Source: Escherichia coli
GTDB taxonomy: Bacteria; Pseudomonadota; Gammaproteobacteria; Enterobacterales; Enterobacteriaceae
Assembly (NCBI RefSeq): GCF_003334405.1
Contig: NZ_QOWM01000014.1
DNA length: 64,000 bases
Strand: one strand, 5' to 3'
A program made the translations under genes and the position numbers. Each line of letters begins with the position of its first letter. Position 1 is the first letter of the stretch. Shown here piece by piece: positions 48,483 through 50,816 of this stretch. The notes beneath the pieces are model-generated. The model saw nothing but the letters and a program-made list of their open reading frames with translations, did not search any database and had not been told where the DNA came from.

Positions 48483-48492
48483 TTCCTTCTCA

Positions 48493-48515
48493 CCCGGAGG
48501 CAAGCACCTCCGGGG
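48493..48515 (+). terminator. Stem-loop after the hemY stop
   Basis: cccggagg caagca cctccggg hairpin about 10 nt past the hemY stop; no clear U-tract. Confidence 0.4.
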
Positions 48516-48529
48516 CCTTCCTGATACAT

Positions 48530-48736
48530 AAAAAAACGCCTGCTCTTATTACGGAGCAGGCGTTAAAACAGGTCTGTATGACAACAAGTGGGTGCTTCAC
48601 TCAACGTTGTGTCCATGGTGTCTGATGAGGCATAAGCGACATCTGTCAGTGGACGATAAGCACCGTAAACGGCTCTGCGTCATTCCGGAGTTTATGAGGC
48701 ACTAAGGCGAACATAAGAGATGGAATGAGCATCTAC
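48530..48736 (-). ncRNA. glmZ: Small regulatory RNA GlmZ
   Basis: Minus strand reads gtagatgctcattccatctcttatg...ending gcaggcgttttttt with a terminator hairpin; matches the GlmZ sequence I recall (about 207 nt), convergent with hemY. Confidence 0.88.
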
Positions 48737-49160
48737 TCGTTTATTATGCCACAGAGAATCGGGAAATAACATCCCTTAACACTTGTTATGAGATAATTCT
48801 GTAATCCTCTTTGCTTCCTGAGTAATAACTTCCTGAGTGAATATTTAACCTGAGCTTGATCCTACACATACTTATTATGAATGATAAAATTCATTCAATT
48901 AATAACACATATATTAATTGCCGTTAAAACTAAAAACAGCATCAATAATCAACGCGATATAATAAACCTGCCTTACATATCAACTGCGCCAGAGGTAGGA
49001 TTGAAAACGCTCTCCTGATTTTCCAATTCATTTTCTGGATAAATAAATAATTTATTTTTGTCACTATTATTTATGTAATCATCCTGTCAGGGAGAGGGAT
49101 CTCAATTATCAATGCTTAATTACGTCATCATTTTGATGACATGAAACCGGAGCATTTTGC

Positions 49161-50816
49161 ATGGAATTTTCGTTTTCACCCAAACGTCTTGTTGTTGCTG
49201 TCGCCGCCGCTCTTCCTCTCATGGCCAGCGCAGCAGATACCCCGTCAACTGCCACCGCACGCAAAGGCTTTGCCGGATACGATCACCCAAACCAGTATCT
49301 GGTTAAACCGGCGACCACTATTGCCGACAATATGATGCCAGTAATGCAGCATCCGGCGCAGGATAAAGAAACCCAGCAGAAGCTGGCAGAACTTGAGAAA
49401 AAAACCGGTAAGAAACCGAATGTGGTTGTTTTCTTGCTGGACGATGTGGGCTGGATGGACGTCGGTTTTAACGGTGGCGGCGTGGCGGTGGGTAACCCTA
49501 CACCAGATATCGACGCCGTTGCCAGCCAGGGGCTGATTTTAACTTCGGCGTATTCTCAACCAAGCTCTTCCCCAACCCGCGCCACCATTCTCACCGGACA
49601 ATACTCCATCCACCACGGCATTCTGATGCCGCCAATGTACGGGCAACCGGGCGGGCTGCAAGGGTTAACCACGCTGCCGCAGTTGCTGCACGATCAGGGC
49701 TACGTCACTCAGGCCATCGGAAAATGGCATATGGGGGAAAACAAAGAGTCGCAGCCGCAGAACGTTGGCTTTGATGATTTCCGTGGCTTTAACTCGGTGT
49801 CTGATATGTACACCGAATGGCGCGACGTTCACGTCAATCCGGAAGTGGCCCTGAGTCCGGACCGTTCTGAATACATCAAGCAATTACCGTTCAGCAAAGA
49901 TGACGTTCATGCGGTGCGCGGCGGCGAACAACAGGCCATTGCCGACATTACGCCGAAATATATGGAAGATCTGGATCAACGCTGGATGGACTATGGCGTT
50001 AAGTTCCTCGACAAGATGGCGAAGAGCGATAAACCATTCTTCCTCTACTACGGCACTCGTGGCTGCCACTTCGATAACTACCCAAATGCGAAATATGCGG
50101 GTAGCTCTCCGGCACGCACCTCGTATGGCGACTGCATGGTGGAGATGAACGATGTGTTCGCTAATCTGTATAAAACACTGGAGAAAAACGGTCAGCTTGA
50201 TAACACGCTGATCGTCTTTACCTCCGATAACGGACCGGAAGCCGAAGTACCGCCGCACGGACGCACCCCGTTCCGTGGTGCGAAAGGTTCGACCTGGGAA
50301 GGCGGCGTTCGCGTACCGACTTTCGTTTACTGGAAAGGGATGATCCAACCGCGTAAATCTGACGGTATTGTCGATCTGGCAGATCTCTTCCCTACCGCGC
50401 TGGATCTGGCAGGGCATCCTGGAGCGAAAGTGGCGAATTTAGTGCCGAAAACCACCTTTATCGATGGTGTGGACCAGACATCCTTCTTCCTGGGAACAAA
50501 TGGTCAGTCTAACCGTAAGGCCGAGCACTACTTCCTCAACGGTAAACTCGCTGCTGTGCGTATGGATGAGTTCAAGTATCACGTCCTGATTCAGCAACCT
50601 TACGCTTATACCCAGAGCGGATATCAGGGTGGATTCACCGGCACAGTAATGCAAACGGCGGGATCGTCGGTGTTTAACCTCTACACCGATCCGCAGGAAA
50701 GCGACTCCATCGGCGTGCGCCATATTCCGATGGGTGTACCGCTACAGACCGAAATGCACGCGTATATGGAGATCCTGAAAAAATATCCACCACGCGCGCA
50801 GATTAAATCTGACTAA
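49161..50816 (+). CDS. aslA: Arylsulfatase-like protein (putative sulfatase)
   Basis: Track ORF 551 aa with signal peptide and sulfatase signature region [15 protein letters not shown]. Confidence 0.92.

Follow-up and report, generated by a model that had tools for sequence, protein, structure and literature searches.

The glmZ–aslA spacer of Escherichia coli: a known AT-rich divergent control region with a young, copy-number-variable tandem repeat

What does the DNA between the small RNA gene glmZ and its divergently transcribed neighbour aslA do, and does the direct repeat that it contains serve as the binding site of a regulator? In the 64-kb stretch of E. coli DNA that was analysed as a whole (here called the window), the glmZ gene is defined by a full-length match to Rfam family RF00083 (GlmZ_SraJ, 218.4 bits) at 48530-48736 on the minus strand, with +1 at 48736, and it is annotated at the same place in NC_000913.3. 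The aslA coding sequence, taken from the list of open reading frames, runs from 49161 to 50816 on the plus strand and is named in RefSeq as arylsulfatase AslA, of the arylsulfatase family. Because the Rfam match ends at 48736 and the aslA reading frame begins at 49161, the spacer is the 424 bp from 48737 to 49160, with divergent genes at both ends. Its RefSeq neighbours are hemY, aslA and aslB, and no feature is annotated within it. The spacer sequence is 100% identical to that of E. coli K-12 MG1655 (the coordinate in NC_000913.3 is 4035168 minus the window coordinate), and the spacer is found in 5424 of 5426 complete E. coli genomes. A sequence-only reading had described it as a strongly AT-rich control region shared by the two genes, in which nucleoid proteins might silence aslA and a 10-base direct repeat might bind some regulator, with GlrR (QseF) among the candidates. 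Our analysis shows that the spacer is a known and ordinary divergent control region, most of which had been explained before.

The description of the spacer as strongly AT-rich is correct. Its GC content is 32.5%, compared with 52.8% for the window, and only two stretches of its length fall below 38% GC in the 64 kb, one being the spacer itself and the other yigF-yigG. These two small genes, which lie 3' of corA at 31731-32809, reach a minimum GC of 0.31 and are comparably AT-rich. The long A/T runs that had been noted in the spacer are real as mixed tracts of A and T, the longest of which has 21 nt (49039-49059), with several others of 8-11 nt. They are not homopolymers, of which the longest has only 5 nt, so the statement is true for mixed tracts only. 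In all 17 enterobacterial aslA upstream regions the GC content is between 0.28 and 0.40, so that the aslA control region is AT-rich throughout this set, a trait that has been conserved. The coding DNA of aslA has an ordinary GC content of 0.50-0.59, and the region should therefore be regarded as an AT-rich promoter region, not as an AT-rich foreign island.

On the glmZ side, the spacer had been expected to hold a promoter, and this promoter has been mapped experimentally. Gopel et al. (2011, PMC3045617) defined ATGTTA-N15-tggCATAAT by deletion and point mutation as a single, constitutive sigma-70 promoter. It maps to window 48743-48772 on the minus strand, with the -35 hexamer ATGTTA at 48767-48772, a spacing of 15 nt and the extended -10 element TGGCATAAT at 48743-48751, and it is kept in all Escherichia species compared. 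The -424 to +32 fragment used in that study comprises exactly the whole 424-bp spacer side. According to stepwise 5' deletions, which were made for glmZ only, on plasmids and in standard medium, the DNA beyond -40 is dispensable for the promoter (PMC3045617). Expression of glmZ'-lacZ was changed neither by deletion of glrR or rpoN nor by overproduction of GlrR. In gel shifts of the same study, purified GlrR, whether of E. coli or of Yersinia, retarded the Salmonella and Yersinia glmZ fragments but not the E. coli fragment from -424 to +32 (PMC3045617). A natural truncation is found in E. coli PSS-16, where an IS1A replaces the remaining spacer and the 5' part of aslA, so that about 50 bp are left upstream of glmZ; this is consistent with the idea that the promoter within -40 suffices.

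GlrR/QseF can also be discounted as a candidate for binding to the repeat, since not only are the gel shifts negative and the glrR and rpoN deletions without effect (PMC3045617), but the motif is missing as well. The GlrR site TGTCN10GACA does not occur in the spacer with up to one mismatch, no sigma-54 promoter (TGGCAC-N5-TTGCA, up to three mismatches, in the proper -24/-12 position) is present upstream of glmZ, and the IHF consensus WATCARNNNNTTR has zero matches in the spacer. These negatives are meaningful, because the same scan recovers every element at the E. coli glmY promoter, namely three perfect GlrR sites at -230, -197 and -134, a sigma-54 promoter at -27 (one mismatch) and two IHF sites. 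Consensus scans of the spacer for CRP, FNR and Fur gave no hits. AraC half-site matches in the spacer are no commoner than in shuffles, and the best ones lie outside the repeat. It had already been reported that the glmZ upstream DNA of Escherichia and Klebsiella cannot be aligned with that of the sigma-54 group (PMC3045617). Wherever glmZ lies beside aslA (in Escherichia, Kluyvera, Pseudocitrobacter, Superficieibacter and MGYG-HGUT-00110), we find an extended -10 sigma-70 promoter of the form TGn-(C/A)ATAAT in every genus, and GlrR, sigma-54 and IHF elements in none of these loci. This widens the “group III” of Gopel et al. from Escherichia and Klebsiella to Kluyvera, Pseudocitrobacter and Superficieibacter.

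The probable place of the aslA promoter emerges from comparison between genera. One genome per species was scanned for AslA, and the glmZ–aslA junctions were then aligned; they stem from five further Escherichia lineages, from Pseudocitrobacter, Kluyvera and Superficieibacter, and from one other enterobacterium. The blocks of the spacer that are invariant across 10 genera or lineages are the glmZ promoter, the aslA ribosome-binding site and, as the only other one, TTACA...TA..AT. The pattern TTACA-N15-19-TA..AT is found exactly once in 16 of the 17 enterobacterial aslA upstream regions, at -130 to -213 from the start codon, compared with 5.5% for shuffles, in a test that is not fully independent because some of the 17 loci had served to derive the pattern. 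Confirmation came from two loci (L011 and L059) and, for a variant of the pattern, from a third (L019), none of which had been used in the derivation. The block occurs also in Citrobacter sp. wls619 and, as the variant TTTACA-N16-TATAGT, upstream of aslA in Salmonella enterica subsp. arizonae. In neither case is glmZ adjacent, and the conserved block must therefore belong to aslA. In the window it reads CTTACA-N18-TAGGAT on the plus strand, with the -35 hexamer at 48972-48977 and the -10 hexamer at 48996-49001, and it is likely to be the sigma-70 promoter of aslA. Transcription experiments with naked DNA and an aslA probe, in which E-sigma70 was 2.5-fold better than E-sigmaS, have been reported (Maciag et al. 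2011). A generic promoter scan was set aside, since it missed both the mapped glmZ promoter and the conserved aslA block. The expectation that the spacer also contains the aslA promoter is thus almost certainly right, and cross-genus conservation points to 48972-49001 as its position. About 200 bp separate one promoter from the other, counted hexamer to hexamer, and the term “shared control region” is therefore appropriate in the loose sense that both lie in one spacer, and in that sense only.

The distribution of AslA itself is patchy in Enterobacteriaceae. The protein is found in Escherichia, Kluyvera, Pseudocitrobacter, Superficieibacter, S. enterica subsp. arizonae and one Citrobacter, and the best 80 matches include no Klebsiella, Enterobacter, typical Salmonella or typical Citrobacter. 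The next-nearest relatives among these 80 matches, at 55-76% identity, come from Chitiniphilus, Flavobacterium, Paraburkholderia, Desulfovibrio and others.

A promoter at 48972-49001 would place the aslA transcription start near 49008 (about 3986160 in K-12) and would give the mRNA a 5' leader of about 153 nt (49008-49160, plus strand). In text form, the Cappable-seq and SMRT-Cappable-seq supplements contain no rows at K-12 39860xx-39864xx. The putative leader includes the palindromic A/T-only tract at 49039-49059, a predicted hairpin GUCAUC/GAUGAC at 49124-49140 and the Shine-Dalgarno sequence GGAG at 49149-49152, and identity within Escherichia is 0.94-0.97 at 49087-49126. Its predicted minimum free energy is no better than that of shuffles (z = -1.08), a fold based on the alignment is uninformative because the helices are nearly invariant, and an Rfam search of the spacer, leader included, returned no family at E <= 1. 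Two details of the predicted folding may be mentioned, both without statistical support: a pairing of AAUGCUU (49111-49117) with GAGCAUU (49150-49156) would cover part of the GGAG, and the hairpin at 49124-49140 shows one compensatory change in E. albertii (49125/49139). Strain NCTC10537 has a 7-bp tandem duplication of TCAATTA near window position 49101, in the putative leader, which is another small indel of the slippage type.

The idea that nucleoid proteins act on the spacer is backed at the in-vitro level. In Genomic SELEX, the spacer was bound by H-NS and is listed as “aslA < HNS > glmZ”, and RNAP-sigma70 alone also binds it (Shimada et al. 2014, PMC3946193). The spacer has no more matches to the H-NS nucleation motif than its shuffles have, and a literature search found no report of aslA derepression upon removal of hns or stpA.

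We now turn to the repeat. The sequence CTTCCTGAGT is indeed present twice, at 48814-48823 and at 48829-48838, exactly as the sequence-only reading had it. The two copies are part of a 15-bp tandem repeat at 48814-48843, with units CTTCCTGAGTAATAA and CTTCCTGAGTGAATA (TRF: 1.9 copies, score 53), which lies at -78 to -102 from the glmZ +1 and at about -170 to -194 from the putative aslA start. When the spacer is shuffled with its dinucleotide composition kept, 21% of the shuffles contain an exact direct repeat of at least 10 nt at some place, and only 2.4% contain one within 30 bp, so that the closeness of the two copies is mildly unusual and mildly non-random. The motif is not enriched in the 64-kb window, with 5 matches at up to one mismatch versus 2.5 expected. 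Direct-repeat sites of the OmpR/PhoB type have periods of 10-11 bp, and those of AraC a period of 21 bp. The period seen here is 15 bp, not the 10-11 bp of OmpR/PhoB-type one-face operators. The helix turns by nearly half a revolution too much between the units for both to point the same way, which misfits a direct-repeat operator that is read from one face.

Comparison among species provides the main argument about the origin of the repeat. The perfect repeat was not found outside E. coli, neither in the five other Escherichia lineages (E. albertii and E. whittamii among them) nor in any of the other genera aligned. The ortholog of the distal unit (copy 2) reads TTTCCTGAGC in E. albertii and TTACCTGAGC in E. 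whittamii, and the position of the glmZ-proximal unit (copy 1) reads CTTCACACAC or TTCGTTCGC in other Escherichia lineages. Six consecutive central bases of copy 1 all differ from E. albertii and match the neighbouring unit exactly, and there is no 15-bp length difference between the spacers of E. coli and the other Escherichia lineages. The two E. coli units resemble each other more than either resembles its ortholog, which speaks against an old conserved site and for a templated event over a short stretch, in the lineage of E. coli. Sliding identity across seven Escherichia lineages is 0.62 at 48807-48826 and 0.46-0.60 at 48837-48876, compared with 0.88-0.97 in the promoter blocks, and the repeat thus adjoins the conservation minimum of the spacer.

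Within E. coli, 4956 of 5426 genomes contain an identical copy of the 41-mer that spans the two units, and a further 229 contain it with one mismatch, so that about 5185 genomes have two units. A synthetic query for the one-copy junction matched perfectly in 178 genomes, about 3% of the 5,426; strain CREC-544 is an example of this allele. Alignment of four of these genomes, from at least two backgrounds, shows that exactly one 15-bp unit is gone, with end-points at the unit boundaries. As E. albertii keeps sequence at that position, the one-copy state is a derived deletion, and slippage between direct repeats would be expected to remove a single unit in this way. Alleles with three copies were looked for among the E. 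coli genomes and not found. The repeat is, in other words, a young, E. coli-only tandem repeat of variable copy number, and its absence from other Escherichia together with the loss of one copy in about 3% of E. coli makes it very unlikely to be the regulator binding site that it had been proposed to be.

The spacer exists in two old E. coli haplotypes, with about 3065 genomes at least 99% identical to K-12 and about 1939 at 90-95%. They differ at 14 of 62 positions in a hypervariable segment (48847-48908, with K-12-like and CFSAN061770-like alleles), which overlaps the Escherichia identity minimum at 48837-48876 and is where the haplotypes diverge most, and at 6 of 21 positions in 48963-48983; elsewhere they are nearly identical. 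At several positions the non-K-12 haplotype agrees with other Escherichia species, and it is for this reason that the K-12 haplotype looks derived or imported. The divergent haplotype keeps the repeat, and its differences begin only 9 bp beyond it. A small open reading frame at 48881-49018 (45 aa) was rejected, as its ATG is ATA in the second haplotype (difference at 48883). On the other side of glmZ, between its 3' end and hemY, E. coli FDAARGOS_497 (L088 3158-3748), CFSAN061771 and WB61 carry an extra 591-bp coding sequence that ends at the glmZ terminator, where K-12 has only 47 bp (window positions of about 48483-48529). Its product, WP_001260227.1, is a hypothetical protein of 196 aa without an NCBIfam match.

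These observations suggest the following account, to which we assign a probability of roughly 75%: a known spacer with a constitutive glmZ promoter, a putative aslA promoter, H-NS-binding AT-rich DNA and a repeat that has no regulatory role. The 40 bp proximal to glmZ have been shown to contain a single constitutive sigma-70 promoter that is independent of GlrR and sigma-54 and does not need the remaining spacer. Transcription of aslA would start from the conserved sigma-70-type promoter at 48972-49001 and produce a leader of about 150 nt, and the AT-rich DNA would allow H-NS-type nucleoid proteins to keep this intrinsically active promoter quiet during ordinary growth. In the E. coli lineage, a template switch or micro-conversion may have overwritten six adjacent bases of the glmZ-proximal unit and so have turned it into a duplicate of the unit that lies 15 bp further on. 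The 15-bp tandem repeat created in this way could then have served as a substrate for slippage, so that some lineages lost one unit. The repeat would accordingly lie in poorly conserved, non-functional filler between the two promoters, as a mutational by-product without a regulatory role. As a counterpoint to the filler view, the repeat is nearly fixed in E. coli (4956 of 5426 genomes), even on the divergent haplotype, and this near-fixation could reflect constraint instead of a recombination boundary.

That counterpoint also speaks for an alternative in which the repeat is an E. coli-specific operator. Some transcription factor would bind the two CTTCCTGAGT units, about 170-195 bp upstream of the aslA start, and modulate aslA, or glmZ under other conditions. 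The proximity of the units, seen in only 2.4% of shuffles, would fit such an operator. So would an AraC-type motif that was predicted from protein-occupancy data within -100 to +10 of glmZ (window positions of about 48726-48836) in a 2025 NAR study, where deletion of araC had weak and inconsistent effects on a GlmZ reporter (PMC12266141). However, the repeat is not conserved in other Escherichia although both flanking genes and their promoters are, one unit is gone from about 3% of the E. coli genomes, and the 15-bp period places the units on nearly opposite helix faces. The region is, moreover, dispensable for glmZ and not bound by GlrR (PMC3045617), the best AraC half-sites lie elsewhere and are no commoner than expected by chance, and the motif does not recur in the window. 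We consider an operator unlikely; for a lineage-specific operator of aslA, variants acting at the RNA level included, a small residual chance is left.

A purely coincidental origin, with identical 10-mers arising by independent point substitutions in AT-rich DNA, has in our view a slim chance. Some exact 10-mer direct repeat is present in 21% of shuffles, and TTC...AATA was common to both positions in the ancestral sequence already. Coincidence accounts poorly for a repeat within 30 bp, though, which only 2.4% of shuffles contain, and for the fact that all six consecutive bases of the proximal unit changed relative to E. albertii and now match the neighbour; that the E. coli units are closer to each other than to their orthologs is the signature of a templated event, as the account preferred here assumes.

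Two further alternatives involve the block at -40 to -70 of glmZ (48776-48805), which contains the palindrome TAACA-CT-TGTTA and, on the plus strand, the hexamers TTAACA-N18-TGTAAT. Its mean pairwise identity across seven Escherichia lineages is 0.88-0.93. It is improbable that the CTTCCTGAGT units, perhaps together with this block, form a recent operator that couples aslA or GlmZ to some signal; if they did, the natural one-copy alleles would be regulatory variants. More doubtful still is a role of the repeat as RNA, which would require TTAACA-N18-TGTAAT to be a distal aslA promoter, or the promoter of a divergent transcript, with a start near 48812, so that the repeat would form about the first 30 nt of the transcript. 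These hexamers are indeed listed as the computed, best aslA-direction promoter in the RNAP-sigma70-bound spacer (Shimada et al. 2014, PMC3946193), and the block is conserved in Escherichia despite being dispensable for glmZ promoter activity (PMC3045617). Nevertheless, the hexamers are a computational best match only, and the companion prediction for glmZ (TTGAGA...GATGAT, about 49078-49105) does not coincide with the promoter that experiments have defined for this gene. In E. albertii the -10-like hexamer reads TGCAAC and lacks its essential final T, and in strain E69 it is TGTACC. Because the companion prediction differs from the mapped promoter and the hexamer is spoiled in E. albertii and E69, we rate a distal promoter low. 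Moreover, nowhere is the spacer less conserved than where the supposed RNA would begin, and neither an Rfam match nor a terminator-like site is present on the plus strand. Finally, it is next to impossible that the ancestral GlrR (QseF)/IHF sigma-54 enhancer of glmY and of Salmonella and Yersinia glmZ survives in the repeat in degenerate form: the position of the repeat upstream of glmZ resembles that of the GlrR sites at glmY (-134 to -230) and GlrR is the candidate that had been named earlier, but the GlrR, sigma-54 and IHF motifs are absent although the same scan finds all of them at glmY, GlrR does not bind the whole spacer in EMSA and the glrR and rpoN deletions have no effect (PMC3045617), the Escherichia/Klebsiella glmZ upstream DNA is not alignable with the sigma-54 group (PMC3045617), and the repeat is younger than the genus.

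How much does all this matter? GlmZ has an important part in regulating how cell-envelope precursors are made, and its E. coli promoter was already known to be simple and constitutive. GlrR binding assays and promoter-fusion deletions, which the sequence-only reading had suggested as checks on the repeat, had been carried out in 2011, with an outcome that speaks against the repeat as far as glmZ is concerned (PMC3045617). It lies in the DNA beyond -40 that this gene can do without, and half of what was to refute a regulatory role, namely unchanged glmZ expression after its deletion, was thus found at that time. New in the present analysis are the restriction of the repeat to E. coli and its polymorphism, the negative motif scans with glmY as control, and the position of the aslA promoter. 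Overall, the importance of the spacer finding is little, and the additions, the aslA promoter and the widened “group III”, are modest. The well-supported position of the aslA promoter and the leader of about 150 nt could be useful for understanding why an invasion-associated sulfatase gene is silent in the laboratory. The repeat, should it turn out to be an aslA operator after all, would be of modest interest.

Among known systems, the closest is the K-12 aslA–glmZ region of Gopel et al. (2011, PMC3045617), which is the same DNA without any sequence difference; that study is silent on the repeat, the aslA promoter and natural variation, all of which are added here. The GlrR (QseF)/IHF/sigma-54 regions of glmY and of Salmonella and Yersinia glmZ likewise lie upstream of sRNA genes of the GlmY/GlmZ family, but their elements are all missing from the E. 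coli glmZ spacer, and GlrR binding is negative. The repeat is like the tandem repeats that slippage and template switching generate in bacterial intergenic DNA, in that it is head-to-tail, 15 bp long, lineage-specific and accompanied by one-copy deletion alleles. Unlike such repeats in general, it occurs in one or two copies only, with no expansion series and no sign of phase variation. From foreign AT-rich islands the spacer differs in that only the promoter region is AT-rich, next to coding DNA of aslA with a GC content of 0.50-0.59. As a class, it resembles the “type-A spacers” with an HNS mark (PMC3946193), among which the glmZ–aslA spacer is listed by name, and with which it shares low GC and the binding of RNAP-sigma70 without activators.
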